Positions 10,051 to 64,000 of a stretch of DNA of 64,000 nucleotides are shown in pieces. This stretch comes from Naegleria gruberi (Eukaryota). The stretch lies in assembly GCA_000004985.1 (NCBI GenBank), contig GG738853.1, one strand, 5' to 3'. Below the pieces are notes generated by a model. The model made no database searches, had not been told where the DNA came from, and was given only the letters and a program-made list of their open reading frames with translations. The position numbers were made by a program, and so were the translations under genes. How positions within the stretch are numbered: the stretch's first letter is position 1; each line of letters starts with the position of its first letter.

Positions 10051-10124
10051 CTCACTTTCTCATTCCCTTACAAAGTTCGTTTTCAAATGTGAACTTTGCA
10101 TAAAAAGTTCCAAGTTGTTTTACA

Positions 10125-10933
10125 ATGAAAAATTTAAAATTACAATTAAAAAAAATGTCTCAACAAGAAACAAGTTCACCATCAGCGGAATCAACTGAAA
10201 AACAAGTTGTTTTGATGAAGGAAAGTAGGAATTATATGGGTCACAAACCAACAAATAAAAAGAGGATGGTTGAGGTGAAGAGGCCAGTTTATGATTTTCC
10301 TCTTGATGATTTTTCGATTTTTGGAAAGGTTTCGGATGAGGATTTGAAGCTCAATTCGACCTATGCTTTGCATACAGCTTTGTGTTACATTCCACCAGAG
10401 TCTATATGGGATCCTGTTCAAGATATAAGACAGGAAATTGATAAGGTATGTTTGAATACTGCTATTTGGTTTCGAACAAATAATAGGGAATGGAAAGATG
10501 GCCTCCTCATGTGAACTTGTTATTTCCTTTTATTCCAGAAACATGTTTTGATTCGGCTTTGAAATTATTGACTCAAGAATTGCAAGATTTCAAACCTTTC
10601 GAATGCTCATTCGATTCAATTTCATATTTTGAAAAAGGATCTTCTGTCTTGTGGGTCAACCAAAACGAAACTGCAAGAAATAACTTTATAGAATTACAAA
10701 AACGAGTTGCTTCCCTCTTTCCTTATTGTGCTAAGAAGAAAAACGAAACTGGAGAATTCATTCCACACATGACTGTTGGTTATGCACCAAAAACAATTGT
10801 GGAAAAAGTTCACAAACAATTGAGTGAGGATTGGAAAACTCAAACTGTAACAGTTGGAGAAATTTGCATGATTTACAGACCTGATGTGGATACTTGTTTC
10901 AAAATTATTCACAAAGTACCACTTGGAAAGTAA
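10125..10933 (+). CDS. 2H phosphoesterase superfamily protein (LigT/CPDase-like, two H-x-T/N-x motifs)
   Basis: Two track ORFs in different frames. They are joined by a 41-nt intron, GTATGT...AATAG, at 10446..10486. Exons are 10125..10445 and 10487..10933. The spliced product reads ...ALHTALCYIPPESIWDPVQDIRQEIDK|GMERWPPHVNLLFPFIPE...FIPHMTVGYAPK. That gives the two catalytic H-x-[TN]-x motifs (HVNL and HMTV) at the spacing typical of 2H enzymes. Confidence 0.6.
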
Positions 10934-11436
10934 ATCAGATTAGCAAGAATAAATATGCAATGTTCATTGACGATTGTTATTTTGTAATCGATTTAGATTT
11001 GTTCAACTTAATAATTATGTGAATAAGGATATGAACATATTCATCAAACAGTATCTGTCACTATTATTCCTAATTTCCTAACCGTGCTCTGTCCACATTA
11101 AATAATTGAATCAACATTAAGCTGACCAACATGATAAACAATCCACTTAAATTATAAGATTTTTTGATAGTGTCACCACGAGGCAGCACACAGAGAGTAC
11201 TATCTAAAATACTCCTCCCTAGATTTAAATATCTCCTCTGTATTTTTTCATCAGCAGCATCTATCTATTATCAAGTTTATTTTTGGTTCTCATAACTATC
11301 CATGTGCTGATCTTTCATCATCACCCAACGCGATAAAAGCTTCATCAAGAACCTTCGCTCATTTAAAATTTTAAATTTTCAATCAAAAAAACAATTTTTA
11401 ATAATTTATTTTTTTTTAATACAACACACAAGAAAA

Positions 11437-18334: not shown

Positions 18335-20092
18335 TTAATAATGTAATTGTTCAATTGCCTCAACCCATGAATCTCTCTCCTCTGCACTGTCTACACAACA
18401 GTTCAAATTTCTCGCTCCCGATATTACCACAAATGTGAAACCCTTCTTTGATTCATCTTCCACATTTCTGGCTCTTGTCTTTGGATCAATTACTACAATG
18501 CCCTTTGGTTTTTCGTTTGGTGCATCCTTGGAGAAATAAAAGAGGAATTCCTTAAATAACAAACAGTACCTCTTCTTCCATGATTTAAAGTTTGAGCCTT
18601 GCTTCTCCATATAGCCTGCCTTGACAGGTCTCATGTGTTTCAGTGTTTGTACAGTTGGGTTAGAACCAAATCGCATCTCTGCTAATGCAGCTCCAGCATT
18701 TTCACCACTATTCTTGAGCAATGTTTGGACATCATTCTTTGATTTTTCATGTTGTTCTTTCAGTGTCAGTAAGGCAGAGGCAAGTTGAAGATTCTCCTTT
18801 CTAGATTCATCCAATTTTTCTTCCACTTCTTGTTTATCCTTTGTGTATTGCTCCGCCAAAGTTTGTCTTTCCTGTGCAAGTTTTTCTTCCATTTCTTGTC
18901 TTTCCTTTTCCAAAGTTTCAGCCATTTCTTGCTTTTCTTTTATCATGTTTTCTTCCATCTCTTTCTTTTCCTTCTCAAGCTTTTCTTTTTCCAAATTTAG
19001 AGATTTTCCCTCGGTAAATTGTTTCACCCTCTCAATTTCAATCGCCAATCGTTGTTTGAGGTCTTGAACCTGACTCTTGTAGGTATCCAACTCGGAGAGT
19101 GTACTATCGAGTTGAGATTTAGTTTCTTGTAATTGAGTTGTGGCTAAAATTTGAGATTGTTCCAAGTGGGAAACTCTTTCTTGAAGAGTGATGATCTTGG
19201 TTTGTTGATTTTCATTCTCTCGCTGCAACTTATCATTTGTAGTCAATAGTGAAGTGTTATCGCTTTCTAGTTTTTCAATTTGTTTCCTCATGTGAATTTC
19301 TAATTTTTTGTACATGTCAGTTGTTTCAAAGTTGGAAACATTCTTTATGAGCGCCAAGAATGCTTTCATTTCAGGTCTTGTATTTACATCAGGTATTTCC
19401 TTTCCTAGAATAGCAATAGAATTTTCAAATATTTCATTCTTGAGAGTGTCGAGTGTCTCTTCTGACTGTTCCAAAACCAAATCGGAATGGTCACAACTAT
19501 AAAAAATGGATGAAATCAGAGACATTATCAAGTGCTTCTCACCATAGAGAATATCTTCAGGCTCCAGCATGATACTCTTCTTGTTCAAATCCAATCTGTC
19601 TATTACTTCCAAAAGGGCTTGGATTTTATCACTATCTGTTGGAGCCTCAGAGATCATTGCCTCATCTTCATCTGTAAAACCCTTAGAGACTGTCTTTACA
19701 AGTTGGTGGAAGAGATAACCGTTTCTCCATTCCTCTCCAAGATTTGTTACCTTAATGTTTTTAGATTCCAACCTATTATTGACCCATCTGAGCAAGAGCG
19801 AGAGAGGTTGTTGATTCATAAATTCCACAACTGTTTCATCTGCCCTCTTCAATGCAATTGCATCAAAGAAGTGAACAATATTCAGTGATTTAGTCAAATC
19901 CTCTCTAATCAATTGCCACAAGATGGAATTTAATGCTGTTGGTCTCCCCTCGGCACAATCCTCTGGAGAAATGTTGACTACTACAATACCAAGACCCTTG
20001 GCATATCCTAGAACCATTGTATGATTCAAAACTCGTTTAATCTTGTTCAATTCTTGTTCCTTCTTTGGTTTACATATTTTACTCCATTCCAC
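18335..20092 (-). CDS. Calponin-homology-like N-terminal domain / central coiled-coil / C-terminal PH domain protein
   Basis: 585-codon minus-strand ORF. The N-terminal ~200 aa (GLGIVVVNISPEDCAEGRPTALNSILWQLIREDL) are CH-like. About 250 aa of heptad-rich E/K/Q sequence follow (LQERVSHLEQSQ...). C-terminal PH domain: KAGYMEKQGSNFKSWKKRYCLLFKEFLFYFSK...EERDSWVEAIEQL. The track start is a GTG, not an ATG. The real 5' end is unresolved. Confidence 0.6.
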   Translation of the reverse strand: MEWSKICKPKKEQELNKIKRVLNHTMVLGYAKGLGIVVVNISPEDCAEGRPTALNSILWQLIREDLTKSLNIVHFFDAIALKRADETVVEFMNQQPLSLLLRWVNNRLESKNIKVTNLGEEWRNGYLFHQLVKTVSKGFTDEDEAMISEAPTDSDKIQALLEVIDRLDLNKKSIMLEPEDILYGEKHLIMSLISSIFYSCDHSDLVLEQSEETLDTLKNEIFENSIAILGKEIPDVNTRPEMKAFLALIKNVSNFETTDMYKKLEIHMRKQIEKLESDNTSLLTTNDKLQRENENQQTKIITLQERVSHLEQSQILATTQLQETKSQLDSTLSELDTYKSQVQDLKQRLAIEIERVKQFTEGKSLNLEKEKLEKEKKEMEENMIKEKQEMAETLEKERQEMEEKLAQERQTLAEQYTKDKQEVEEKLDESRKENLQLASALLTLKEQHEKSKNDVQTLLKNSGENAGAALAEMRFGSNPTVQTLKHMRPVKAGYMEKQGSNFKSWKKRYCLLFKEFLFYFSKDAPNEKPKGIVVIDPKTRARNVEDESKKGFTFVVISGARNLNCCVDSAEERDSWVEAIEQLHY

Positions 20093-20841
20093 AACTCCTT
20101 CTATTAAATTATCGATGAGATGACTATTTTACATTCCATTCATTCGTTGTTATTGTTGTTTATCAAATTTCAGAAGAATGATTAGTGAAAACCTACATGA
20201 ATATTAAACCATCACTTAATCGACCATATAACTCATTTGAAGTTTCCAAATTATCAACACTAATTGGTTGCCACTCACCAATCGTTTCCTCCACTCGTTG
20301 TGGCATCTCTCTCAATCTCTTACTCATAACGGAATTAATAAACATGATAAAACACCTCTTCTCTCTCTTTGAAATCGTCGAGACCGAACCTGTTGCACTC
20401 ACCGATTTAATTAGTGGCTCGACACTCCTGAGTGAGGCTCCTCTTAACTTGATAGCCTCTTCACCTTCGAGCGTTGTTGTTTGTTGCTGCGAATTGTCGT
20501 TATTAAGGTTGCGAGATGACAACATTTTTTCTACAAGTAATAATTTTTTTAAAAATTCCTTAAATCCTTAACGTCTCCCTTCAACAGCCCAAAGATTTGG
20601 CGGGAGAAATCTTGCTCAATAATGCACTGTAAAATAATGATCCCCTTAATGGTTCTATTCGAAAGGAAAATTAGTTTATTTAAGTATTTAAAAGTTTTCA
20701 AGTTTTTTATAAAATGTTAAATTTTTGTATCTTTTAAAAAGAATTCATACTTTCAGTTTCAAAATACGAAATGAAGATAAACTTACTTAAAGAACATCAA
20801 GAAATTACAATTTATTTAATGAAAAATCAAAATGTAAAAAA

Positions 20842-22071
20842 ATGCAAAGACAACAACAGAGAGCATCCTCATCACAAAATGTTTCTCAACATCAGCAATC
20901 TCTTGAACAACAACAAAATTCTCAAGAAGAGGATGATTTAGAATCGGTCAGATTATCACAAGCTGACGAATTATCGCCACCATCATCACCCGAACCTGAA
21001 ACTCCTTTTCAAAATCGAAGAAGGAGAGAACGAGAACGTTCTTTATCATCTAATGATGAAGAAGAACAATCAGTAGTAGATGAACAAGACAATACTTCAG
21101 TAACTCCCAACATAAATGCTCATCAAAGTCCCTATGTAACATCAAATGCTCGGAGGAGAGATTTAATGTACTCTAATCGATACTCTCCACAAACACCAGG
21201 ACAAAAGAAGAAGGCTTTGGAAAATAAATTGAAAAGGGATTTTCCAGAAGACTTTAGAGAAATGAATAGAAGAGAGGAGGAACGAAAAAAGAAACGAGAA
21301 TTTTGTCCAGATAGCTGTGGCTCGATTGCTGGATTTCAATTTACAAATCCTGGTTTACTCATGTTGGGACAGTCAGCACTACATAGATCGGGAGCAATCA
21401 GTTCATTGAGTACGATTGATCCTGCCTTCCTGGCACTGCATAGTCCCGAGAAGAGAATTGAAATTTTGAATAGTGTGGTTGCAAAACCTCCTCCACTTCC
21501 TCCAAAGGAACCAAAAACAGAGGCCGATATACTGAGGGAGTTTCTTAAAAAGAAGAGAACTGAATTGGCAAAACAGGACAAGGTTCAACCTAGATTGATC
21601 ATGGCAGATGATACTATCGATCTGATTGTCATGTGTAGAGAATCAATGTGTATGGGACATGAACTAGTTGAGAAAATTAAGGAAAAACATCAACAGACGA
21701 TTGTTAATTATGTACGAGCATTTGTGAAAAAGAAACATCAACAGCATGAAACTGCAGATGATAATGTAAATAGCAACCATTTAGATTTGAATGTCAATTC
21801 CTCTCACTTGAATGAAACGAGTCAATCAGCATGTTTGGAAAATAGTAACAACAATAACACATTGAATGAGATTTCCCAACTGAATCATTCTATTGCATCT
21901 TCAACATCTTCTCAAACTGTTGTTACAGAGCCAGTTACTCCTGCCAAACAAAGTGTTTCCTTAAAAACTCCAACAGCAAGTAATTCAAAGAAAACACCAG
22001 TTCAAAAAGAGGTTATCGAACTTGATTCTAGTGATTCTGATGATGATGATGGAATTATCCAAATTGATTAA
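20842..22071 (+). CDS. Hypothetical low-complexity (Ser/Gln/Glu-rich, acidic C-terminus) protein
   Basis: ATG at 20842, 409 codons, no intron detected. It has KR-rich patches, so it may be nuclear. No domain recognised. Confidence 0.45.
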   Translation: MQRQQQRASSSQNVSQHQQSLEQQQNSQEEDDLESVRLSQADELSPPSSPEPETPFQNRRRRERERSLSSNDEEEQSVVDEQDNTSVTPNINAHQSPYVTSNARRRDLMYSNRYSPQTPGQKKKALENKLKRDFPEDFREMNRREEERKKKREFCPDSCGSIAGFQFTNPGLLMLGQSALHRSGAISSLSTIDPAFLALHSPEKRIEILNSVVAKPPPLPPKEPKTEADILREFLKKKRTELAKQDKVQPRLIMADDTIDLIVMCRESMCMGHELVEKIKEKHQQTIVNYVRAFVKKKHQQHETADDNVNSNHLDLNVNSSHLNETSQSACLENSNNNNTLNEISQLNHSIASSTSSQTVVTEPVTPAKQSVSLKTPTASNSKKTPVQKEVIELDSSDSDDDDGIIQID

Positions 22072-29465: not shown

Positions 29466-30794
29466 ATGCATCCCTTTGAAGGTTACGCAAAATTATGTGG
29501 GCAAGATGTTGAATATTACTTACAAAAGCTAAATGTCTCTCTCGGAAGAACACGGGTGCCTGATCCACAAGTTATAGATCCTAAATCTTTGGCAGAAGAA
29601 CAGACAGTTGATGCTAATCAAAGTTTAAATTCCACATTATCTACTACAGGTCATTTACAACCTTCTATTGAAACACTTCAAAGAGTGCTCTGGGAACAAG
29701 ATGTAGATATTCCTCTAGGTACCAACAAGAATATTTCACGTCTCCATGCCAAAATAATTTATAATGCTATAACAAAATTCTTTGAATTACACGTGATATC
29801 AAAGAATGGTGTAAAAGTTAATGGAATTTACTATCCTCCACAACCACACTCTCAACCAATCCCACTTCATAACGGTTATGAATTACAATTAGGTGATTGT
29901 TTCTTGACCTTTATGCTTCCAATTAAAAAGATAACCCAAAGCGAAATGTATCAAATGGTAAACCTGAAAAAGAGAGATATGCAAAATGCAGATAGAGCTG
30001 ACAGAGACAATTCTTCAACAAATGATCAAGATAGACAAGGAAATGATATGATGATGACTGACGAGAGTCACACAAGTACTATGAATGATGAAGTTTCTGA
30101 TGCTCTTTCAAAAAACTTTCTTAGAGAAATTGAACCAATGGACGACCCCAATGGAGAGTATGGTTCTTTTTTTCTAAATGAAGGAAAGAAGAATATTTTT
30201 TTTAGGAACCTCGGAAATGGTCTAGCTGGGGGAACACCAATTAGTAGTGAACAAGCAAATGTACTTGCAAGATCATTGACAACAAGTATTGGCCCTTCTC
30301 TCACTGCAGCAGTAACACAAACTTTATCTGGAATTTATTTAGAAAATCACTCTGATTTTATCAAATCATTTCTTTCTAAATCAAATGCACCAAGTCCTCA
30401 TACGGAAATGGTTCTGGAGTATCTTTACAACTCTCCTGATATTGAAAATGCAGAATCACCTGAGGCAGTTAGTATGTTAGCGCGATTAATGACAGATATG
30501 GATAATAATATCGGATCAAACTTTTCCAACATGTCCAAGAATACTAAAAAGCTGTTGCATATAGTACTGAATGCTGCTTTGGCAACAGAACAACAAGAGT
30601 TAGCCTCTCTACTTTTCAAGACAAAGCAAGAAAACGAAATTACTGTAAGAAATGGTATTGCTACTTTTGTGCTTGATTGGAACGAAAAGAAGCAGAAACA
30701 ACAAGATATGGAAGCTGCTGTAAATACAAGTGCTACAACACCTCTTGTAGATCCACAAGCCTCCTCTCTTTCATCTCATCCAACAGTGAGATAG
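29466..30794 (+). CDS. FHA-domain protein. This is the likely 5' portion of a FoxK/Fkh1-type FHA-forkhead transcription factor gene.
   Basis: ATG at 29466. AKLCGQDVEYYLQKLNVSLGRT...ISRLHAKIIYNAITKFFELHVISKNGVKVNGIYY...LQLGDCFLTFMLP matches the FoxK/Fkh FHA pattern (AKLEG.EFEY...GR......SR.H....f.l...GKNGV.V.G). The stop is a TAG at 30792. The forkhead ORF starts 98 nt downstream on the same strand. Confidence 0.6.
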   Translation: MHPFEGYAKLCGQDVEYYLQKLNVSLGRTRVPDPQVIDPKSLAEEQTVDANQSLNSTLSTTGHLQPSIETLQRVLWEQDVDIPLGTNKNISRLHAKIIYNAITKFFELHVISKNGVKVNGIYYPPQPHSQPIPLHNGYELQLGDCFLTFMLPIKKITQSEMYQMVNLKKRDMQNADRADRDNSSTNDQDRQGNDMMMTDESHTSTMNDEVSDALSKNFLREIEPMDDPNGEYGSFFLNEGKKNIFFRNLGNGLAGGTPISSEQANVLARSLTTSIGPSLTAAVTQTLSGIYLENHSDFIKSFLSKSNAPSPHTEMVLEYLYNSPDIENAESPEAVSMLARLMTDMDNNIGSNFSNMSKNTKKLLHIVLNAALATEQQELASLLFKTKQENEITVRNGIATFVLDWNEKKQKQQDMEAAVNTSATTPLVDPQASSLSSHPTVR

Positions 30795-30891: not shown

Positions 30892-33087
30892 ATGGCCACC
30901 ACAACATCATCATTAACTTCTCTAATTCCTCCTCCAATATTATCATCCTCTCAACAACAACAAACACAATTGACGGATGTACCTCCATCATCGCAGAGTA
31001 CAACACAATTACCACCCGATGATGATTTGGATGCTTTGGACGAATTTGATGAATTGATGGCTTTCGTCAATGCTCCTATGGATACAAATTCTGAACAATG
31101 GCGTTTATTGAATCAAAATTCAAATGTTCCACCAGTGACAACAACAACTTCCTCTATTCCTCCTAATGATACAACAGTAAACAGTAGTGCTACTACATCA
31201 AATGTAACTGCACCAACTACTGAAAAGAAGAAAAAGACTACAAAAAAGAAGAAGGATGAAAAGGAAACCACCACTAAAAAGAAGGAAACAAAGAAGAAGA
31301 AGGATGATAAAAAAGAGGACAAGAAGGAAGATAAAAAGGAAGAAAAGAAAGAAGAAAAGGAAAAGAAGAAGAAAAAGAAGAAGGAGGAGCCATCTACTCC
31401 AAAGGATACTGTCAAACAAGAAGAGCCTGCTGTTTCCACACCAAAAGATCCCAATCTTAAGAAACCTGATATTTCATATTCTACAATGATTGCTCATGCA
31501 CTCATGTCAGCAGCTAATAACATGATGCCTCTCAAATCAATTTATTCTTGGATTTCCACAACTTATCCATTCTACGATCTTGCAGAGACTGGTTGGAAGA
31601 GTAGTGTGAGACATAATTTGAGCACAAATTCTAAATATTTCCGAAGAGTATCACCTGAAGAATGGAGACAATTAACTGGAGAAGAGAAAAAGTCAAAATC
31701 TAAAAAACAAGGCTCCTCAGATAAGAAGATGGCATTCTCTGTCTATGCACTTGTGACTGAGCATTGTGATGAAGTTTTGGGAACAAAGAAAGCCAAATCA
31801 GACAAGAAGGCATCCTCTTCTACTTCTTCTTTAACAACGCTTAGTAATGCTACTACAGCACCAGTTAGTTCATCATCTACATTACCTGCCAATAGTACTC
31901 TTTCTTCTTCTACTAATGCAACCACTGACCAAACAGCAATAACCTCAGAAGTGAAAGAAGTTAAGGAAAAAGAAACCAAGAAGAAGAAATCATCCACCAG
32001 TAGTGCAACAAAGAAGAGAAGTAGAAAAAAGTCCGAATCTACAGACTTGGATTTAAATGATGGCTTGTTGAACTTTGATGAAATTGCACCATCAATGAGT
32101 TTGGATAAACCAGAAAAGAAAAAGAAGAAGAAGACTTCTAAAAAATCAGAAACTCCTACAGCTAGTACAACTCCAGCTGCTGAATCTTCAACACCTGTGA
32201 CTCAAACCAATAACAACAATAATACCAATGTAACTACTCCCCAATTGTCACATTCCAGTTCCAATCAAAACTTCCAACACAGTACTCCAACTAATCAAAT
32301 TTCTATCACCCAAAATATTATGCCAAATACATCTCAACCATTGGCTCCAAAACAACCATTCCCTTTGTCAAATCAAATTCCTAATCAAATTCCACCAAAC
32401 CAAATGCCAAATCAAATGCCAAACCAAATGCCAAATCAGATGCCAAATCAAATACCTAATCAAATCCCTCGTCAAAGTACTAATAACTTGTTGGAAATGT
32501 TTGTTCAGAATGGAATGCTAAATGCCCAAGAACCTTCTTTTCTTAAAATTTTATTGGATGGAAATGGAGATTCATCAGCCAACAATCCATTATCAGCGCT
32601 CATGGGTCAAGGAGGTCAGAATATGAATCCAAACCAAGGACTCAATACAGCACCACTTGGTAATATGGTTGATTCACAGGGAAAGCAAATTGACCTTATT
32701 AATTTACTTTCAATGGTAACTGGAATGCCTCAACAACAAAACATGTCTCAATCTGGTATGTCTCAACCACCAATGCACCAAAACTTTTTAGATCCAAATA
32801 ACAGACTTGTTACACAAGGAAGACCTCCTAATTGGCCACCTGGTGCAGGCTTACCAAATCAACTTCAAGGAGGAAGGCCTTCTATGGGATCAGTTGTTGG
32901 TATGCAAAATCCTGGTCAATTCCCTGTACAAAATCCAAATATGAATCCATTAGGTCATCCAGGATTTAATCAATTCCCATTTCCCATGATGAACTACTCT
33001 CAAACACTTCTCAACTTTGATCCATCATCAATACTGCAGCAACAAGGTAATGGTGGTATTCCTCCCAATAATAACAATAATAAATAG
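30892..33087 (+). CDS. Forkhead (winged-helix) DNA-binding domain protein. This is the likely 3' portion of the same FHA-forkhead gene.
   Basis: Forkhead box at about nt 31462-31640: KPDISYSTMIAHALMSAANNMMPLKSIYSWISTTYPFYDLAETGWKSSVRHNLSTNSKYFRRV. It carries the invariant features KP..SY..LI..AI, F.YY, GW.NS[IV]RHNLS. The flanks are a K/E-rich block and Q/N/P-rich tandem repeats (NQMP)n. The reading frame is open upstream to nt 30790, overlapping the end of the FHA ORF. Confidence 0.7.
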   Translation: MATTTSSLTSLIPPPILSSSQQQQTQLTDVPPSSQSTTQLPPDDDLDALDEFDELMAFVNAPMDTNSEQWRLLNQNSNVPPVTTTTSSIPPNDTTVNSSATTSNVTAPTTEKKKKTTKKKKDEKETTTKKKETKKKKDDKKEDKKEDKKEEKKEEKEKKKKKKKEEPSTPKDTVKQEEPAVSTPKDPNLKKPDISYSTMIAHALMSAANNMMPLKSIYSWISTTYPFYDLAETGWKSSVRHNLSTNSKYFRRVSPEEWRQLTGEEKKSKSKKQGSSDKKMAFSVYALVTEHCDEVLGTKKAKSDKKASSSTSSLTTLSNATTAPVSSSSTLPANSTLSSSTNATTDQTAITSEVKEVKEKETKKKKSSTSSATKKRSRKKSESTDLDLNDGLLNFDEIAPSMSLDKPEKKKKKKTSKKSETPTASTTPAAESSTPVTQTNNNNNTNVTTPQLSHSSSNQNFQHSTPTNQISITQNIMPNTSQPLAPKQPFPLSNQIPNQIPPNQMPNQMPNQMPNQMPNQIPNQIPRQSTNNLLEMFVQNGMLNAQEPSFLKILLDGNGDSSANNPLSALMGQGGQNMNPNQGLNTAPLGNMVDSQGKQIDLINLLSMVTGMPQQQNMSQSGMSQPPMHQNFLDPNNRLVTQGRPPNWPPGAGLPNQLQGGRPSMGSVVGMQNPGQFPVQNPNMNPLGHPGFNQFPFPMMNYSQTLLNFDPSSILQQQGNGGIPPNNNNNK

Positions 33088-34751: not shown

Positions 34752-37073
34752 ATGTCAACATCCTTGTTATTGTTGGTGGATCAATTGACAACATTTTACG
34801 GAAAGAAACTTTTAAACGATCATTATGCTCTCACCTATTTAGATAATAATTACTATTCATTGGCTTTCATTGGAGTCATGTTATGTTTGGTGTGGGGAGT
34901 TTTAATTACTGCGCCAATTCATATCATTTCTTGGGTTTTGTATTTTGTGGGTGCTAGGAAATCATCATCATTAAATTCATCATCTTTTGGAATTGATGAT
35001 GATGATGAGGAGGATGTTGTTGGAAGTTCTGGTTTTGGTGGTCAGAAACAACCTTCCCTAAAGAAACAAATTGAAAAGAGTAGAAAATTCGGAAAGGTTT
35101 TTAATGTCTTGACAAGTGTTTCATCATTTGTTTGGTGTTTGTTTGCTTCTTACTTTTTGGTGCTTGTTTCTACATTTTCTAGAGCTCATTATATTTTGAC
35201 AGCTTTGGTGATTACTATTATGTGGTCTGTTTGGTTGATTAATAGTTTTGTTTTGGATTTAAAGTGGATTATTGTTATGATTTATTATAGACTTGTCAAG
35301 AAGGTTGATTTGACAAGTGTCAGCACATCATCTAGTCAAATGATTCAAGAATCACAAGAATTGGCTGATGATGGTGAAGCACTTTTGGAAGATAACTCTT
35401 CTGGTTTACAAAGAAGACCACAATCTTCATCAAAATTAGATCCAAAGAAAGCAGTTACTGTTACTCGTTCCTTGCTTTTGGATTCATCAAAACCATACAT
35501 TTCTAGAAAGCCAATTCTTGCTGTCATTTTGATTGTTATTGCTACTACAATTATTCTCATTGTTTCTGTCATGACAACTTTCATCTTTGCTGATATTTGT
35601 ATTGCCTATGATCCTATTGAAATTTCTACACATTTCACTCGTACTGTCTTGTCAAATGGCAAGTGTGAAAGAGATACTGTCTGTTATTCTTATTTGACAG
35701 TTCCAGAAAAGATGGATCATCAAATGATTGTCAATTTCCAACTCTATACTTATGAATTCTATAAGGGCTTTGTTGAATATAAGAGATTCGATCCAGCTGA
35801 TGAAGATTTTGATCCAAAAGATGTTGAATTCAATGAATATCATCAAGCCAGTTGCTTTAAATTGGATAATATTGAAGAAGAAAGCAGATATCAATGTTTT
35901 GCTGAATTGACTGATTTGAAACCTGGTTCTTCTTATATTCTTCGTGCTGGTTATTCTGCATCTGAAAGTACTGATGCTCATGATTTCCACTACGATAATG
36001 AATATCTCAAATTTAGAACAATTCCATCAGAGGATGATTCCTCCAAGATTGTTTCATTCATTAATGGAGGTGATTTGGCATGGAGAGGACCAACCTATGC
36101 TCTCTCCAAAGCTGTCAATACTTTGGGATATGGAAATGTAGATAATGCTCCATATTTCGCTATTGTTGGTGGTGATATTGCCTATGAAAATGGATGTGCC
36201 TACTGTTATAGAAGATGGGACGATTGGTTCTTGAATTGGAATAAGTTTATGAAGACAACTGTTCAATACGATTCTGATAATTCTACCATTCATCAATATA
36301 CACTTCCAATTTTGACAACTGTTGGTAATCATGAAGGTGGTAATTTCAAGAGACCTAGATCAGATGATGCATTCTATATTAGATTATTCCCAATGTCAAT
36401 TAGTGGAGCAACTGAAAAGATTGTTTCTGATCCACAAACTACAAGAAAATTGCAACACGTCCACTATCTCTCCAAGCATACCATGATTGTTGCATTGGAC
36501 AGTTGGGTTCACGAATCTCCACAAGACCAAATTGAATACTTGACCAATCTCTTTGAAAAATCAGTCACTGCAGGAACCTACAAGAATCGTTTCATTATTA
36601 TTCACCATCCAATGTATACTTCAGGTAGTGTTGGAGACATTGATAAGGAAATGATTGCCAAATGGGAATCCCTCTTCCAAAAGTATGGTATTACAGCAGT
36701 TTTTGAAAATCACGTTCATACCTACAAGCAAACTTATCCAATTCGTGATGGTAAGGTTGTAACAAAGACCAGTGAACAAACTGATTCAACATCTGTTGCA
36801 TTCAGTTACAAGAGAGAATCTGCTGACAATAGCAAGGACGGAATTATGTATTTCGGAGATGGAAGTTGGGGAGTTACCTATTGGAATGCTTCCTTGAGAA
36901 AGAGCAGTGGACTCTTCAGACAAATTGGAGTTTTGAGTCATGTCTATCATGTCAAATGTAGATCATTATCGAATGCTATTTCATTCACTGAATTGTATGC
37001 TCTTGGATATAATTCTACAACTGGAGCTGTTTCTGAATTTGGTAAATCTCGTGTCAGAATTGAAGTTCACTAA
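34752..37073 (+). CDS. Membrane-anchored purple-acid-phosphatase-like metallophosphoesterase
   Basis: ATG at 34752. Several N-terminal hydrophobic helices (nt ~34830-35620). An FN3-like segment follows (QCFAELTDLKPGSSYILRAGYSA). Then the calcineurin-like motif set: INGGDLAW, GGDIAYENG (GDxxY), TTVGNHEGG (GNHE), IIIHHPMYTS and FENHVHTYKQ (GHxH). 773 aa, single exon. Confidence 0.7.
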   Translation: MSTSLLLLVDQLTTFYGKKLLNDHYALTYLDNNYYSLAFIGVMLCLVWGVLITAPIHIISWVLYFVGARKSSSLNSSSFGIDDDDEEDVVGSSGFGGQKQPSLKKQIEKSRKFGKVFNVLTSVSSFVWCLFASYFLVLVSTFSRAHYILTALVITIMWSVWLINSFVLDLKWIIVMIYYRLVKKVDLTSVSTSSSQMIQESQELADDGEALLEDNSSGLQRRPQSSSKLDPKKAVTVTRSLLLDSSKPYISRKPILAVILIVIATTIILIVSVMTTFIFADICIAYDPIEISTHFTRTVLSNGKCERDTVCYSYLTVPEKMDHQMIVNFQLYTYEFYKGFVEYKRFDPADEDFDPKDVEFNEYHQASCFKLDNIEEESRYQCFAELTDLKPGSSYILRAGYSASESTDAHDFHYDNEYLKFRTIPSEDDSSKIVSFINGGDLAWRGPTYALSKAVNTLGYGNVDNAPYFAIVGGDIAYENGCAYCYRRWDDWFLNWNKFMKTTVQYDSDNSTIHQYTLPILTTVGNHEGGNFKRPRSDDAFYIRLFPMSISGATEKIVSDPQTTRKLQHVHYLSKHTMIVALDSWVHESPQDQIEYLTNLFEKSVTAGTYKNRFIIIHHPMYTSGSVGDIDKEMIAKWESLFQKYGITAVFENHVHTYKQTYPIRDGKVVTKTSEQTDSTSVAFSYKRESADNSKDGIMYFGDGSWGVTYWNASLRKSSGLFRQIGVLSHVYHVKCRSLSNAISFTELYALGYNSTTGAVSEFGKSRVRIEVH

Positions 37074-37826: not shown

Positions 37827-38765
37827 TTACAAAATTGAATAAATAATCAAAATACAAATCAACAATCCATAACTCAACACTCCAATCGATTCAACTCCAC
37901 TAGTAGCTGGCATTTTCTTTGTAAAAATCGAAACTGGCAATGGATCACCAAAAACTTTCATATAACAATTCACACATTCCTTATGATCATTCATCCAACT
38001 GTACACATCAATAGCATCGAATAGAATAGCATGTACTTGTTTAGTTTCTGCAAATGAAAACATTGCATTCATTGTAGAGCCAGGATATTTCTGGACTAAA
38101 GATAAACTGTTGTTCATGACTTGATCGAATAAAGTTCCTTTCCACCAAGCAACTTTGACATCTGCTCTGTTGAGTTGATCTAAAGTGGTAATTCCAGTTA
38201 TGGTTGTGTTATCGAGGTCAGTTCTCATGAATGTGAAATAGGTAGTTCCATAAGAGCATGTAGTAAACGAAACTTGTTCACTTCTGGCAGTTGACAAGGC
38301 AGTATCAGAAACTACAATATCACATGCACCAGAATTAATCCCACCCAACAAGGAAGGAAAATATCCACTGGTTGTATTAATCGAAAGATATTCGATTCCT
38401 AACGAAAGTGAATACTTCTTATTTAGATTAGCAACTAAACCCTTTGCAACCAATTTATAAACAGTCAACCACAAATTAGTTGAACTTGTTTGAAGCTCTG
38501 AACAAATCGTTAATTTCGTGATATTAGAAGGTAAAGGATTTTTCGTTGGATAATTTGCAGTTTCTTTACAATATGGAACGACGAAAGGAACACCCAATGA
38601 TGTAACTTGTTTCTGGAAGGTTGTATCTTGTGCTAATTCTGTCATGGCTGCGTCTACTGCGCTAGTCCAAGCAGCAGAAGCAACTGATGGGTCTGAAGTG
38701 ACAACTGTCAGGTGGCAGATAATACAAATGACAAGGAAAATGAGGGTTGATTTGAGTTCTGGCAT
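37827..38765 (-). CDS. Secreted solute-binding-protein family 3 (SBP_bac_3, iGluR ligand-binding-like) domain protein with a C-terminal hydrophobic (GPI-type) tail
   Basis: Probable start MPELKSTLIFLVICIICHLTVVTS, with the ATG at 38765. The track ORF begins further upstream. GACDIVVSDTALSTARSEQVSFTTCSYGTTYF matches the SBP_bac_3 signature (G.aDia.agltiT.eR...vdFs.pY). C-terminal tail GVLSYGLLICILIIYSIL. Confidence 0.55.
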   Translation of the reverse strand: MPELKSTLIFLVICIICHLTVVTSDPSVASAAWTSAVDAAMTELAQDTTFQKQVTSLGVPFVVPYCKETANYPTKNPLPSNITKLTICSELQTSSTNLWLTVYKLVAKGLVANLNKKYSLSLGIEYLSINTTSGYFPSLLGGINSGACDIVVSDTALSTARSEQVSFTTCSYGTTYFTFMRTDLDNTTITGITTLDQLNRADVKVAWWKGTLFDQVMNNSLSLVQKYPGSTMNAMFSFAETKQVHAILFDAIDVYSWMNDHKECVNCYMKVFGDPLPVSIFTKKMPATSGVESIGVLSYGLLICILIIYSIL

Positions 38766-44270: not shown

Positions 44271-47200
44271 ATGAAATTAATTTATTATATACTATTCCTA
44301 CTTTTTCTACTAACTTTCTCTAATTGTTCTTCTTCCTTCGACTTTCGAATATTTTCTCTTCCGAAAATTCAAAAGTATAATACCAAAGATATCCAACAAC
44401 AAGTAACGAATACAACAAGACGAATAGATAATCTAGCTTCGGAACTATTCGAATACTGTCCATTTCCTTTCGGGACGAATACTTTAGGTTGTTCGATGGT
44501 TCAGAAGAAATTTATTCTAAACTCTTCAATGACACTTCCCGAAATTTTAGCAAATATTACGAAAACTATTAATGAAACGATTAGTTTTCCATTAGTTTCG
44601 GATATTATCTTCCTTGTGGATGTTCATATTGAAAGAAATATTTCTCGTTCGGACTGTGCTTCGTTTCTGCAAGTTGAATTATTCGAAAGTAAGAATAATT
44701 TGCAATATTTGCAATTGTATTTAAGATTTATTGGAAACGGCAATGGAATTGATTGTGATAACCAAGGATTCTTTGCATTTACTATTAATTCATCAAAAGT
44801 TACAAGATTAGTCCAATTTCAAAATGTCACCTTTCAATCGGTTCAATTATTTGGTGAATTACTTATATTTAGAGATGTTAACTTTGATGGTGGAGTTACT
44901 GTTTATGAAAATGCAATAGTTATGTGGAAAGTAAATGGTGAACTACCTATTGGAAAGATTTCAATAGAAGAAAGTCGATGGAGATCAATTCTATTGGTGG
45001 ATTCGAATTTTGCAGTCGAATCTTTGAATTATTTGGAGAAGGTAACTTCATTGTGGATTATTAGAGTGGCATTTAAATTGAATAACGTATTCCAATTGGT
45101 GAATATTGATGATTTGATATTGGAACATGTTAAATTCATGCCAGAAATTTATGATAATCGAATTTACAAATCTCCATTTGTATCCTTACGATTTATCAAA
45201 TATGTAGTATTATTTAGAACTGAAATTGATGGATTTTCATATCAAACTGCTTTGAGTATTGAATATTCTGTTAATGTATTGATTTCATACTCATCCTTTT
45301 CGAATAATCATGTAAATTCCAAAGATTCCAATACGAATATACTCCTAGCAAAGGGACTCAATCAATTACATGTTCTCTATTGTAACTTTTTCAATAATAT
45401 TGCAGAGTATGGTTCTGTTTTTGAAATTACTGGAATAAGTTCTCTATTAATTAGTATGAATTCATTTCACAATAATACTATTGCTAATAGTGCTTTATAT
45501 TTGGGAAGATATGTCGATACGCATTATAGCTATGTGAGGATTCAGAATTCGATATTTACCGATAACAAAAGTTATTCGAAGGGAGGTGCTCTAACCATTG
45601 ACAAGTTATCCTCAGAACCTAATTTAAGCATTGAAGTTTATGGATGTTCCTTTTCTGAAAATAGTGGTGAATTTGGTGGTGCTATTCATTCATTTTCCAA
45701 ATTATTGGTCACTGGAGGAATGTTTTATTCCAATACAGCAGTTCAACAGGGAGGTGCTATCTTTGCCAAGGATGGCCTCTCTCTTAGAAGCACATATTTT
45801 ATTAATAATTCAGTAATTGATACAAGTCTAACCTATTGTACAGATAATAATTGTATTGGTAGTGGAGGAGCTGTTTCGTTTCTCGTTGAAAATGGATCAG
45901 ATTCATCCCTAGTGATATTCAGAAGCTCTTTCGATGGTAATACAGCCACTAGAGGAGGTGGTATTAGTATTAGCAGACCCGATGAGTTGAGTATTGAAGG
46001 TAATACTTTTAAAGATTGCAAAGCTGATTTTGCTGGAGGAGCACTTTTCATTAGCTCAATACTTAATCAAACATTTTCTAGCTCGCTAATTGAAAGTAAC
46101 GAATTTTCAAATAATCAAGGATTGACTTATGGGGATGATATGAGTTCAATAGTTTACACAGTCAATTGGAAATACTCAATTGATGGAAAACAGTATAATT
46201 ATTTAGATTCGAATGGAATCAAAATTTATCCTGGGCAGGTATTCTCACTTTTTCCTGAAGCTTTTGACATTTTTGACCAATACATTCCAGTATTGAAGGA
46301 AACAAGTGAATTAGGCATCAAAAATAGTGATAAATTCCAATTAGAAAGACAAGGTTATTCATTCGGTAACATATTCATTTCCGTTATCAATCAAACAGAT
46401 TTTGACTCAACAAAATTGACATTGGTGAGCGCGTTTAGTGTTACCATTTCTGAAATTCCAATTATTGTTGAACCATGCCCTTCTGATACAAGTTTAAAAC
46501 CAGCCAATTATGGAAAATCTTATGATTTCATTTGTCAGCAAAAGCCATCCTATGATTATGTTATTGCTGTGGCTGTAACTCTAACCGTACTCACATTATC
46601 ATTCTCTGTGGGAATGGTAGCAGTTTGTACCTATTTATGTGTTAAAATAACTCGAAAAGTTAATTATTGGGTTAAAAGAGATAAAGCAGAAAAGGACATT
46701 GAGAAGAGATTGTTGGAAAACGAAATAACCTACATGGAGGATCATTCTCTACAAACTGTCAACAGTACAGGATCTGGTAAGAGACAACAAGTGTCCTTCA
46801 TCATTAGTATCGATCAGATATTTCCAGAAAAGAAGATTGGAGAAGGTGGATCAGGAGTTGTCTATTTGGGAAAGTGGCATCACCATCCTGTTGCTATCAA
46901 ATGTTTGAAAATTGAAGACACTGCCAATTCTGATGAAATTGAAAAGGAAGCTGCAATGTTATGTCGATTGAGACATCCTAATATTGTGCTATTTTATGGT
47001 GTTTCACTAACACAACACAAGCAATACCTCGTAGTTGAATATTTGGAAAGAGGAAGCTTGGAAAAGTATATTCAAGATATGAAACGTCAAGAAATATCAG
47101 TAACCTTCTCTGAAAAGTTGAAACTCTTAATTGACATTGCATGTGGAATGGTTTATTTACACAGTTTGAAAATAATTCATAGGTAAGTGTGTTCATATTA

Positions 47201-47961
47201 AGAATATTAGAATTTTACCAATGAAAATTAGAGATTTGAAACCTGCCAATATTTTGATGGATGCCAACTGGACTGCCAAAGTTTGTGATTTTGGAATTTC
47301 AAAAATTATGGAAAGCACTGCTCATACGACAACTCTCTATGCAGGAACACTCTTCTACTTGGCTCCTGAATTATTACAATCGGAACATGATGAAAAAAAC
47401 AAAATTACAATCTCTGTGGATGTTTTCAGTTTTAGTATTATAATGTGGCAATTATTCTTTGAGGATAGTCCTTATATTAATACGAAATCTCCCAAACTTC
47501 ATCTATTTCAATCGGTCAACTTGAATGAAAATGGTCAACAAAAGAAAACTTCTGAACATTTGACACCATTTTCAGTATTGGCAAGAGTTTTGAAAGGTGA
47601 AAGACCTTACATTCCATGGCAAGGATTTAACAATGAAGCAGATTCTGAAATCATGATGGAATGGCTCGAAGAATACATGCCAGAATTTTCAAACTATTAT
47701 CCTCATCAAAAAGAACATGTTGTCAGTCTCGTATCAGATTATATGGAGCTAATGAAAGCTTGCTGGTGTGAAAACTATCAAAACAGACCAAATTTTGAAA
47801 CCATTCTCGGTTGTCTAATGATTTTGAAACAACACATTGATAGTTTACAGACTAATAATGTAAACAGCCCACAACATGATGGCTCCACTCCATCCAGTGA
47901 TAGGATTTTACTCCAATCAAGCACAGATATCCAACAAATCCTATCTACTAGTAGAAAATAA
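44271..47961 (+). CDS. Receptor-like TKL-type protein kinase with an extracellular Pmp-like (GGA[IL]/FxxN) beta-helix repeat domain
   Basis: Exons 44271..47182 and 47232..47961. The intron is a 49-nt GTAAGT...TTAG that splits the catalytic loop: IIHR|DLKPANIL. Signal peptide MKLIYYILFLLFLLTFSNCSS. At least six GGA[IL]/GGG motifs are each preceded by FxxN (FSENSGEFGGAIHSF, FYSNTAVQQGGAIFA, FDGNTATRGGGISI, FKDCKADFAGGALFI, ...). TM helix VIAVAVTLTVLTLSFSVGMVAVCTYLCV. Kinase motifs IGEGGSGVVYLGKW, VAIK, HRDLKPAN, CDFGISK. Confidence 0.75.
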
Positions 47962-59747: not shown

Positions 59748-60391
59748 AGTCAACATTTACATTCCCATGGTACCATTTCTGATTACTAGGACATGAAATT
59801 AAATTCTATATCATTATAGATCATCTACATTATGATGGTAAAGTTTCAATAGGTGGTCCTTTTTCCAGATTTCCACATATTCATACAAGTTCATACAAGT
59901 TGACCCTATGATGGTTGAGGGAAGAAATCTTTAAATATGAAAGTTAAAATAAATTTGATATTCGATGTTTACTCATCAAATGGAACATTTTCATGTCAGG
60001 ATTCAATATGTTTTCATGAGAAACTCAAAAGTTATTGTTGACCTATTGTACCTCACAACTTCCCTTTTCACTTGATACTTTTATACCTACAGACATGAAC
60101 TTTTGAAATTTTATATGAAAGTGATTATGAATGTTGTTAATGATGATATAGACTATATAATCTCATTAAAGGATTTTGAAACTATCATCCTTCCTATGGT
60201 TTCATTTTACAATTTTTAATCTGACATTATTTACAAGGTTGATATTTTATAAATTGAAAAACTAAATATACCACATTGTTCTACTCATCATTTACAATCG
60301 AATGATATAAAATTTAATGATATTTGAATAAGTTTATATATTTGGGCTAGGGTTTGAACGTTGGGTTTAGAAGAATTCTATTTTTAGAATT

Positions 60392-60808
60392 GGGTTTGGG
60401 TTTGGGTTTGGGTTTGGGTTTGGGTTTGGGTTTGGGTTTGGGTTTGGGTTTGGGTTTGGGTTTGGGTTTGGGTTTGGGTTTGGGTTTGGGTTTGGGTTTG
60501 GGTTTGGGTTTGGGTTTGGGTTTGGGTTTGGGTTTGGGTTTGGGTTTGGGTTTGGGTTTGGGTTTGGGTTTGGGTTTGGGTTTGGGTTTGGGTTTGGGTT
60601 TGGGTTTGGGTTTGGGTTTGGGTTTGGGTTTGGGTTTGGGTTTGGGTTTGGGTTTGGGTTTGGGTTTGGGTTTGGGTTTGGGTTTGGGTTTGGGTTTGGG
60701 TTTGGGTTTGGGTTTGGGTTTGGGTTTGGGTTTGGGTTTGGGTTTGGGTTTGGGTTTGGGTTTGGGTTTGGGTTTGGGTTTGGGTTTGGGTTTGGGTTTG
60801 GGTTTGGG
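60392..60808 (+). repeat. (GGGTTT)n telomere-like hexamer array, about 70 units. It is preceded by degenerate variants and truncated by a 50-N gap at 60809-60858.
   Basis: Perfect 6-nt periodicity can be read directly. The lead-in at 60340-60391 carries degenerate copies (GGGCTAGGGTTTGAACGTTGGGTTTAG...). Confidence 0.95.
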
Positions 60809-62986: not shown

Positions 62987-63572
62987 CTGACATGTTGAAT
63001 GATTTCAAATTGTCATGAAACTGATACAGTGGTGTTTATTCACCATTAGTAAGGTACTGTATCAATTTCATAATGATCTGTATAGTAGATGTCATTGTCA
63101 CATCCCTGTAGGTATCAAGTGCATCAGCCATGTACCATGTATGATATGGATGAATGTCAAAGTGATATTAATGTATTTAATTATCATGTACAGATGTATT
63201 GGAAGTGCATTGAAGTGGAACAGAATTCTCTCTTCAATGTTAGAATAGGTCAGTTGACAAGTTGAATAGTTAATTTCCTGAAATGATACCAAAGTATTTG
63301 AAATTGATATATATTGTTATTAACATGATATATAAGGTGATATATTGATTTGAATTGAATTTGAAATGTTTTCATTGATATTCTAATTGTCTAATCTATT
63401 ATATGAAATTAACTTATATAAATCATTATAATGATGTAATATTATGTTATATTGTGATTATATATTCAATTTGGAGTATATTGATATATAATATATTGAT
63501 TTATAATGAGTATTTATTGAGATAATCAATTAAGATGAATAAAAGTCAAAATATTGGGTCTGGCTTTGGCGT

Positions 63573-64000
63573 GGGTTTGGGTTTGGGTTTGGGTTTGGGT
63601 TTGGGTTTGGGTTTGGGTTTGGGTTTGGGTTTGGGTTTGGGTTTGGGTTTGGGTTTGGGTTTGGGTTTGGGTTTGGGTTTGGGTTTGGGTTTGGGTTTGG
63701 GTTTGGGTTTGGGTTTGGGTTTGGGTTTGGGTTTGGGTTTGGGTTTGGGTTTGGGTTTGGGTTTGGGTTTGGGTTTGGGTTTGGGTTTGGGTTTGGGTTT
63801 GGGTTTGGGTTTGGGTTTGGGTTTGGGTTTGGGTTTGGGTTTGGGTTTGGGTTTGGGTTTGGGTTTGGGTTTGGGTTTGGGTTTGGGTTTGGGTTTGGGT
63901 TTGGGTTTGGGTTTGGGTTTGGGTTTGGGTTTGGGTTTGGGTTTGGGTTTGGGTTTGGGTTTGGGTTTGGGTTTGGGTTTGGGTTTGGGTTTGGGTTTGA
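63573..64000 (+). repeat. (GGGTTT)n telomere-like array, about 71 units, running to the window end with the G-rich strand 5'->3' toward the terminus
   Basis: Perfect hexamer repeat from 63573 to the last base. A degenerate lead-in GGGTCTGGCTTTGGCGTGGGTTT lies at 63556-63572. The repeat has the same orientation as the block at 60392. Confidence 0.9.

Follow-up and report, generated by a model that had tools for sequence, protein, structure and literature searches.

What is a ligand-binding domain of the kind found in bacterial periplasms doing in a eukaryote, as a free-standing and apparently secreted protein? The question is raised by a locus of Naegleria gruberi on contig GG738853.1 (assembly GCA_000004985.1), of which we analysed a stretch of 64,000 nucleotides, hereafter the window. 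A reading of the letters alone (the sequence-only reading) had described one open reading frame (ORF), now identified as NAEGRDRAFT_78753, as a secreted solute-binding protein of family 3, the fold shared with the ligand-binding domains (LBDs) of ionotropic glutamate receptors (iGluRs), with a glycosylphosphatidylinositol (GPI)-type tail. Our analysis bears out this description and adds three features that it had missed: the domain is, as judged from sequence comparisons, circularly permuted, it carries three putative family-specific disulfides, and it belongs to a heterolobosean multigene family. The ORF was found where it had been placed, running from ATG to TAA and encoding 312 amino acids:

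37827..38765, minus strand: complete intronless coding sequence of NAEGRDRAFT_78753, 312 codons plus stop (37827-37829), from the ORF list and its translation.

The translation matches exactly the N. gruberi protein XP_002680664.1 (EFC47920.1, NAEGRDRAFT_78753, D2V693; 312 amino acids), which settles the eukaryotic host and is known to the databases only as 'predicted protein'. The signature quoted in the sequence-only reading, GACDIVVSDTALSTARSEQVSFTTCSY, was located at residues 146-172 (window 38250-38330).

Homology to family-3 solute-binding proteins

The hidden Markov model search that the sequence-only reading had called for gave a divided answer. PF00497 (SBP_bac_3) matched the native protein with E=1.9e-4 over residues 113-182 only, and its 21.6 bits lay below the gathering cut-off of 26.4. 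PF10613 (Lig_chan-Glu_bd) gave no match to the native protein at E<=10, and the best result of an NCBIfam scan was E=0.017. Family membership was instead established by profile homology, and by a score of 26.6 bits once the chain order was restored as described below. A word-indexed search with the single sequence returned five relatives, the sole named one being from N. lovaniensis (34% identity). When a profile of those relatives was run against 1.84 billion cluster representatives, 248 proteins were recovered at E<=1e-3, including 34 at E<=1e-30. For profiles, conservation and structure modelling we used a 25-sequence family alignment (A2).

Searched against the PDB, the A2 profile matched 63 sequences at E<=0.01. 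The best of these was AncCDT-1 (E=2.1e-20), and binders of Glu, Gln, Arg, Cys and D-Ala followed at 1e-14 to 1e-8; bacterial GluR0 (5e-6) and the LBD of GluN1 (8e-4) were also reached. Individually, 14 of the 25 family members matched PF00497 at E<=0.01 (best 9.8e-8). An AlphaFold2 model built on five sequences was unusable (predicted local distance difference test, pLDDT, 54.7), and we therefore used the model built on the 25-sequence alignment (pLDDT 90.0; predicted template modelling score, pTM, 0.80). In a Foldseek search of this model against the PDB, the top matches were Trp-, Arg-, Cys-, Gln- and Glu-binding proteins with E=2e-13 over 213-220 columns. The model consists of two alpha/beta lobes and a two-strand hinge, the arrangement that defines class F type II solute-binding proteins. 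Profile, model and Foldseek thus agree with the two-lobed, iGluR-LBD-type fold that had been proposed, and we regard as secure that NAEGRDRAFT_78753 has the family-3 solute-binding fold and is homologous to bacterial polar-amino-acid binding proteins. The folded core is arranged as follows:

38250..38516, minus strand: lobe 1 core, residues 84-172, from the secondary structure of the model and the PF00497 match at 113-182.
37971..38249, minus strand: hinge strand and lobe 2, residues 173-265, from conservation, cysteine covariation and profile alignments to lobe 2 of AncCDT-1 and GlnBP.
37911..37970, minus strand: return beta-hairpin, residues 266-285, the last folded element, from the model strand 268-283; the canonical C-terminal helices are absent after it.

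Lobe 1 is modelled as strand 1 (with Cys88 and Glu90), helix 98-118, strand 123-129, helix 135-144, strand 150-156 and the helix of Arg161. The hinge strand and lobe 2 carry Gly210-Thr211, His245, Asp250 and the Cys264-x-x-Cys267 pair.

Circular permutation of the domain

In the canonical chain order, strand 1 comes first and two closing helices come last. NAEGRDRAFT_78753 departs from this order: the AlphaFold2 model has two confident helices ahead of strand 1, within residues 28-60, and nothing folded after the hairpin 268-283. The two elements concerned are:

38586..38684, minus strand: two N-terminal helices, residues 28-60, VASAAWTSAVDAAMTELAQDTTFQKQVTSLGVP, the permuted element (helices 31-45 and 48-56, pLDDT ~97).
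38517..38585, minus strand: linker loop of 23 residues, 61-83, which bridges the former C- and N-termini (coil, pLDDT >89).

The helix segment reads AAWTSAVDAAMTELAQDTTFQKQVTSLG here and LRTAISAALKEVMANSEWDTIYYKWF or ELYSILNLALGTIKSNGKLESILNRF in relatives, and resembles the C-terminal helices of canonical proteins. The linker holds Cys66 and a conserved YP motif, with C66 and P73 conserved in the family.

We compared a 'de-permuted' alignment (A4), in which residues 78-285 are followed by 28-60, with a native-order, core-trimmed alignment (A3). Against the PDB, A4 matched 190 sequences at E<=1e-3 and A3 matched 119. The A3 alignments ended at about chain residues 165-210, whereas those of A4 extended to the chain C-termini (5tuj 62-234 of 235, GlnBP 55-221 of 226, HisJ 57-231 of 238), as did those to both domains of GlnP in 6h30. 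Bit scores rose from A3 to A4, from 43.1 to 52.5 for GlnBP and from 71.8 to 91.4 for 6h30. In the A4 alignments, strand 268-283 pairs with the strand that precedes the C-terminal helices of solved solute-binding proteins (SBPs).

As a control, the appended segment was reversed or column-shuffled five times. Across 33 bacterial multi-domain proteins, the true segment carried 42 of 124 domain alignments to the end of the profile and gained 256 bits over the truncated profile; with the control segments, none of 122 alignments reached the profile end and the score did not improve. The Pfam model behaved in the same manner. PF00497 scored 20.2 bits on the native core (profile positions 26-93), 26.6 bits on the de-permuted sequence (26-124 of 132), which is above the cut-off, and 20.6 bits on the reversed control. 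De-permutation merged two PF00497 stretches of the relative P0079 (64.5 bits) into a single one covering 11-131 (69.6 bits), and it raised the score of P0046 from 27.7 to 32.8 bits. In a further relative, P0106, the N-terminal residues 41-71 of the native sequence directly match PF00497 positions 98-129.

Taken at the level of sequence, these comparisons show that the NAEGRDRAFT_78753 family is a circular permutant of SBP_bac_3 in which the canonical C-terminal helices stand at the N-terminus. The permutation accounts for the partial, sub-threshold Pfam match, and because of it standard domain models under-detect the family. Tandem head-to-tail domains are the classical substrate for permutation by duplication, and as a hypothesis we propose that the family probably arose by this route from tandem GlnP-type binding domains. 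A limited literature search on natural circular permutation of such binding proteins returned engineered sensors or generic remarks only.

Conserved cysteines, ligand clamp and selection

Six cysteines are nearly invariant in the family, and over ~75-80 aligned sequences they covary as three pairs. C88 and C148 occur together in 71 sequences, are jointly missing from 11 and are never split; C66 and C170 are both present in 65, both absent in 3 and split in 4; and C264 and C267 are both present in 72, both absent in 3 and split in 1. Alternative pairings were often split in the same count. The covariation points to three family-specific disulfides, C66-C170, C88-C148 and C264-C267, the first of which would staple the new linker to the hinge region.

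The best conserved non-cysteine positions of the family are those of the ligand clamp: R161 is invariant (25/25 A2 members), and G210-T211 and D250 are largely conserved. In the family-HMM alignment to what we take to be the E. coli GlnBP sequence, R161 corresponds to R75, G210-T211 to G117-T118 and D250 to D157. In the structures of GlnBP, HisJ and iGluRs, these clamp residues hold the alpha-carboxylate and alpha-ammonium of the ligand. The side-chain pocket differs from that of the same GlnBP sequence (K115 to W208, H156 to F249, T70 to A156), and the specificity therefore cannot be named. A conserved His245 replaces the Asp that is usual in bacterial proteins.

The ratio of nonsynonymous to synonymous substitution rates (dN/dS) was 0.14 in the comparison with an environmental allele (99% identical) and 0.15 in that with a homologue at 67% identity, for which dS is near saturation. 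These values show that NAEGRDRAFT_78753 is under purifying selection.

Secretion, topology and membrane anchor

On a Kyte-Doolittle plot (19-residue windows >1.6), hydrophobic segments were found at residues 1-29 and 288-312 only. They correspond to two predicted targeting signals:

38694..38765, minus strand: N-terminal signal peptide, ~residues 1-24, MPELKSTLIFLVICIICHLTVVTS, from Kyte-Doolittle hydropathy; the cleavage site is approximate.
37830..37910, minus strand: predicted GPI-attachment signal, residues 286-312, PATSGVESIGVLSYGLLICILIIYSIL, from hydropathy and family tails, rule-based.

The tail consists of P-A-T-S-G-V-E-S followed by 19 hydrophobic residues that run to the last residue, with no cytosolic tail. 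The small residues A287-T-S-G290, then VES, stand ahead of the hydrophobic end, and cleavage at either candidate omega site (A287 or S289) would remove 23-25 residues. A small-residue linker followed by a terminal hydrophobic stretch is the classical layout of a GPI signal, and nearly all of 67 family tails show a linker of 8-20 residues rich in Ser, Gly, Ala or Asn and then ~20 hydrophobic residues.

Among 31 near-full-length family representatives, 26 end in a hydrophobic tail without cytosolic residues and 22 have an N-terminal signal; no true internal membrane segment was found in this set, and the one internal segment that was flagged (47-67) resembles a signal peptide behind a mis-called start. 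The secretion and GPI-type tail foreseen by the sequence-only reading are thus predicted here as well, from hydrophobic segments confined to the termini and a pattern kept across ~60 family representatives. The protein also contains four N-glycosylation sequons. By these sequence features, NAEGRDRAFT_78753 is most likely extracellular, GPI-anchored and N-glycosylated. In a paper on the Naegleria pangenome, 'evidence of GPI-anchored proteins' receives no more than a passing mention (PMC9928731), and our literature search on Naegleria solute-binding or periplasmic binding proteins and GPI transamidase found nothing relevant.

An integral channel was considered and ruled out, as there is no internal membrane segment and no channel domain. 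The view of a stand-alone binding domain, likewise put forward from the sequence, agrees with this and with the lack of a Lig_chan-Glu_bd match.

A heterolobosean multigene family and its origin

Word-indexed homologue searches with A2 and A3 gave five to six matches and no new names, so that we drew the taxonomic range from 30 cluster look-ups. All named members among these look-ups were heterolobosean:

N. gruberi: NAEGRDRAFT_78753; NAEGRDRAFT_68554 (two tandem domains).
N. fowleri: FDP41_000021, FDP41_012477.
N. lovaniensis: C9374_005968, C9374_002535, C9374_008685.
Others: three genes of Willaertia magna; Heterolobosea sp. BB2.

Entries of the sister species carry the automatic name 'Solute-binding protein family 3/N-terminal domain-containing protein'. 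Paralogues within the family are 20-35% identical. Three family genes lie within a 21-kb stretch of the N. lovaniensis contig PYSW02000026.1 (L001), at 10001-11002 (+), 19004-20040 (-) and 20398-21002 (-). In contrast to this tandem cluster, the N. gruberi window holds a single copy, with no further family members found in its 64 kb; synteny between NAEGRDRAFT_78753 and N. lovaniensis was not found within 10 kb. The middle gene of the N. lovaniensis cluster is annotated as two short genes and is probably a split model. NAEGRDRAFT_68554 (P0007), which lies outside the window, carries a tandem pair of almost identical domains and ends in a GPI-type tail; its first domain seems truncated at both ends, possibly as a result of the gene model.

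Other architectures were found in metagenomic sequences. In P0125 (L006 1431-3263, JGI metagenome 3300050213), the permuted ectodomain follows a signal peptide and is linked by a transmembrane helix to a Pkinase domain of Ser/Thr/Tyr type. P0128 (L007 651-3692, Logan SRR22388309) joins the permuted ectodomain to NIDO and teneurin-like EGF repeats, and P0137 has the ectodomain with a transmembrane helix and a basic tail. The P0128 gene adjoins a gene for a 1470-amino-acid EGF/VWD protein.

For the phylogenetic comparison with bacterial homologues that had been suggested, a rough neighbour-joining tree was computed without support values; it set the eukaryotic family apart from the bacterial domains; a donor could not be identified. 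Within this tree, the nearest neighbours of the window protein were two metagenomic sequences; P0004, N. lovaniensis C9374_005968 and N. fowleri FDP41_000021 joined next. The nearest sequences outside the family were bacterial amino-acid SBPs at ~20-25% identity, closer than iGluR LBDs. In the search of 1.84 billion proteins, the best bacterial matches (~E=1e-10) had three to six tandem SBP_bac_3 domains fused to a BPD_transp_1 permease. In a motif scan (A1) covering 185,579 prokaryotic species genomes no relative turned up, which is a weak negative given that the scan was motif-based.

The family resembles bacterial SBPs more closely than iGluR domains and lacks an S1/S2 split, which makes a bacterial origin plausible on sequence grounds, with no identifiable donor. 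Horizontal acquisition of the domain, raised as a possibility in the sequence-only reading, is likewise plausible; a transfer, if any, would be old, preceding the split of Naegleria, Willaertia and BB2.

Possible functions

We consider it probable that NAEGRDRAFT_78753 is a GPI-anchored permuted flytrap at the cell surface, which binds an amino acid and reports its occupancy via a membrane partner. Its cleft would close around a free amino acid or a compound very similar to one, held by the clamp R161, G210-T211 and D250 as assigned by alignment. Occupancy would then be passed on through a membrane-spanning partner, with the protein serving as GPI-anchored co-receptor; such a partner would be required because NAEGRDRAFT_78753 has no cytosolic part. 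The co-receptor view fits the metagenomic relatives in which the permuted ectodomain is fused via one transmembrane helix to a protein kinase, and these fusions support a sensing role of the permuted domain.

Several observations pull the other way. The native PF00497 match, as noted, is partial and falls short of the cut-off. The disulfide geometry and the placement of the N-terminal helices in the canonical C-terminal position were derived from sequence, covariation and confidence scores. The GlnBP sequence behind the residue equivalences is presumed to be correct on its internal consistency, as it has the expected residue at all 11 literature positions and fits the alignment ranges of the profile. 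D250 is replaced by E, S or P in some members, and not all members therefore need bind amino acids. The GPI anchor is predicted from rule-based features, and with 4-6 residues the spacer that separates the candidate omega site from the hydrophobic tail is short. The kinase fusions come from metagenomes and not from N. gruberi, and a literature search on NAEGRDRAFT_78753 and its named relatives found no paper that refers to them and no experimental or expression report. The two roles named in the sequence-only reading, sensor and scavenger, are both plausible.

The scavenger alternative, which is the chief competing reading, is a nutrient-capture receptor that concentrates a scarce amino acid or related nutrient at the cell surface and then hands it to a transporter or brings it into the cell by endocytosis, without signalling, in the manner of GPI-anchored folate receptors or trypanosome nutrient receptors. 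The same structural evidence (ligand clamp, GPI-type tail, no cytosolic domain) fits it equally, the fold descends from bacterial transport proteins, whose best-matching representatives are fused to permeases, and Naegleria feeds by phagocytosis and pinocytosis. To our knowledge, however, SBP-dependent importers do not occur in eukaryotes, where free amino acids normally enter via carriers; the kinase fusion of the same ectodomain in relatives points to sensing, and the many divergent paralogues look more like a receptor repertoire. We therefore judge nutrient capture unlikely. The anchor itself could be read differently, with the C-terminal stretch as a permanent, uncleaved transmembrane anchor of a type I protein that lacks a cytosolic tail. 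The short spacer after the candidate omega site would suit this, and P0137 (with its basic tail) and P0125 (with its kinase) do have true transmembrane anchors; it is nevertheless improbable, since the stretch runs to the last residue without stop-transfer charges, nearly all members have the small-residue-rich linker ahead of it, and the length of the peptide to be removed (22-25 residues) is typical. Also quite improbable is a surface coat or adhesion protein without any small ligand, in which the flytrap would be a mere scaffold in a variable, glycosylated, GPI-anchored multigene family. The size and divergence of the family (20-35% identity), the GPI-type tails, the four sequons, the N. 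lovaniensis tandem clusters and the position of the gene ~22 kb from a telomere-like repeat would all suit such a role, but it leaves unexplained why the clamp is conserved (R161 in 25/25, G210-T211 and D250 largely kept), and the dN/dS of ~0.15 gives no sign of diversifying selection.

An enzyme derived from a binding protein, for example of the cyclohexadienyl-dehydratase type, is suggested by the fact that modern cyclohexadienyl dehydratases and reconstructed ancestors rank near the top of the sequence and fold comparisons. AncCDT-1, which matches best, is however a non-catalytic amino-acid binder, consensus-like ancestors score high generically, the conserved residues are those of the binding clamp, and an extracellular GPI-anchored dehydratase would have no obvious substrate, all of which makes this reading very improbable. 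A recent bacterial transfer or an assembly contamination might be invoked for a fold that is typically bacterial, in a genus whose genomes are reported to contain many laterally acquired genes (PMC9928731). Yet the gene is flanked by Forkhead, FHA and kinase genes on a 695-kb scaffold, its GC content equals that of its flanks, and the protein carries eukaryotic targeting signals and has homologues in N. fowleri, N. lovaniensis, Willaertia magna and Heterolobosea sp. BB2; the motif scan of 185,579 prokaryotic genomes gave no relative, and the best bacterial domains reached only ~E=1e-10. Such an origin is hardly credible, and contamination was rejected on the eukaryotic context and the conservation in other heterolobosean genomes.

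Returning to the GPI-anchored amino-acid sensor, a wider scenario can be drawn, which we advance tentatively and with some doubt. In the Heterolobosea, a natural flytrap permutant would have arisen from tandem domains after an ancient bacterial transfer and expanded into chemoreceptors, both GPI-anchored co-receptors and single-pass receptor kinases.

Comparison with known systems

In its presumed mode of action, NAEGRDRAFT_78753 would work like a bacterial polar-amino-acid binding protein or an iGluR LBD. Compared with bacterial SBP_bac_3 proteins (GlnBP, HisJ/LAO, ArtJ, ArgBP, AncCDT-1/AncQR), it is permuted, has the three proposed family disulfides and His245 for Asp, bears a eukaryotic signal peptide and a GPI-type tail, and apparently lacks a partner ATP-binding cassette (ABC) transporter. 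The GlnPQ-type proteins with tandem domains (PDB 6h30) gave the best-scoring bacterial sequences, and their head-to-tail layout is a substrate for permutation; they differ in being bacterial, in canonical order and fused to a BPD_transp_1 permease. No intermediate between the GlnPQ-type tandem and the permuted family was found. The Naegleria protein is not an iGluR: compared with the iGluR LBDs (GluR0, AvGluR1, GluN1, plant GLR3.4), it has no channel domain, no S1/S2 split and no PF10613 match, its chain order is permuted and in sequence it lies nearer to bacterial SBPs. For PfVFT1 (PF3D7_0606800, PDB 5jkq), the search of the A2 profile against the PDB detected no sequence similarity at E<=0.01, and PfVFT1 is reported to be without an identifiable anchor and probably without GPI (PMC13199436). 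The flytrap sensor kinases BvgS and EvgS and SBP-dependent signalling involve histidine kinases and domains in canonical order, whereas the Naegleria protein has no kinase and would need a partner.

Family-3 domains belong to a well-studied fold that gave rise to the LBDs of glutamate receptors and to many engineered biosensors. A permuted, disulfide-stapled and membrane-tethered version under selection would show that evolution took the route of the engineers. If the wider scenario drawn above is correct, it would represent an independent eukaryotic co-option of the fold beside glutamate-receptor channels and class C G-protein-coupled receptors, and could be how Naegleria senses amino acids from prey or host tissue. 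Among free-living amoebae, the family offers candidate surface amino-acid receptors, also in the human pathogen N. fowleri (FDP41_000021, FDP41_012477), in which we know of no chemosensory receptors. For annotation, the N. gruberi entries still read 'predicted protein', and the fold is already visible to automatic annotation in the sister species.

Genomic setting and neighbouring genes

The scaffold that carries NAEGRDRAFT_78753 measures 695,587 bp, and 5 of 10 window ORFs that we looked up are exact N. gruberi proteins there. The neighbours are ordinary eukaryotic genes (Forkhead, FHA, protein kinases), and the GC content around the gene (0.33-0.34) is the same as in the rest of the window. 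No transporter gene was found within the 64-kb window, although in eukaryotes the genes nearby are no guide to a partner.

Two near-perfect (TTGGGT)n arrays, at 60390-60808 and 63554-63999 with ~70 and ~74 copies, are separated by runs of N that mark assembly gaps. The repeat is telomere-like and probably marks the end of a chromosome or a join between scaffolds, from which NAEGRDRAFT_78753 is ~22 kb away. An apparent low-GC 'island' at 60-64 kb (17% GC, with extreme GC skew) was dismissed as an artefact of the N runs and the telomere-like repeat.

The adjacent NAEGRDRAFT_78752 (34752-37073, plus strand, 773 amino acids) begins with a region that holds several hydrophobic segments. Inspection by eye picked out the metallophosphoesterase motifs GDLAW, GGDIAY, GNHE, HHPMY and ENHVH in the C-terminal half of this protein; in Pfam it showed a weak match to Pur_ac_phosph_N only (E=0.0025). 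From these motifs, it may be a divergent membrane-bound purple acid phosphatase. An FHA-domain ORF (29466-30794, plus strand) is followed ~100 nt later by a Forkhead-domain ORF (30892-33087, plus strand; E=1e-21). If the two form one gene with a small intron, the product would resemble fungal Fkh1/2 or animal FOXK. A single protein kinase domain is divided between the ORFs 44271-47186 (N-terminal half) and 47221-47961 (C-terminal half), both on the plus strand. The short sequence between them begins with GTAAGT and has an AG shortly before the second ORF, and they are probably one gene with an intron of ~35 nt.

The 99%-identical allele used above for dN/dS comes from an environmental metagenome (L002, L003; ENA ERZ929261 / Logan ERR1078381) and differs at two amino-acid and four synonymous sites. 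Its downstream neighbour is the same as in the window, which indicates that the sample contained a closely related N. gruberi strain.

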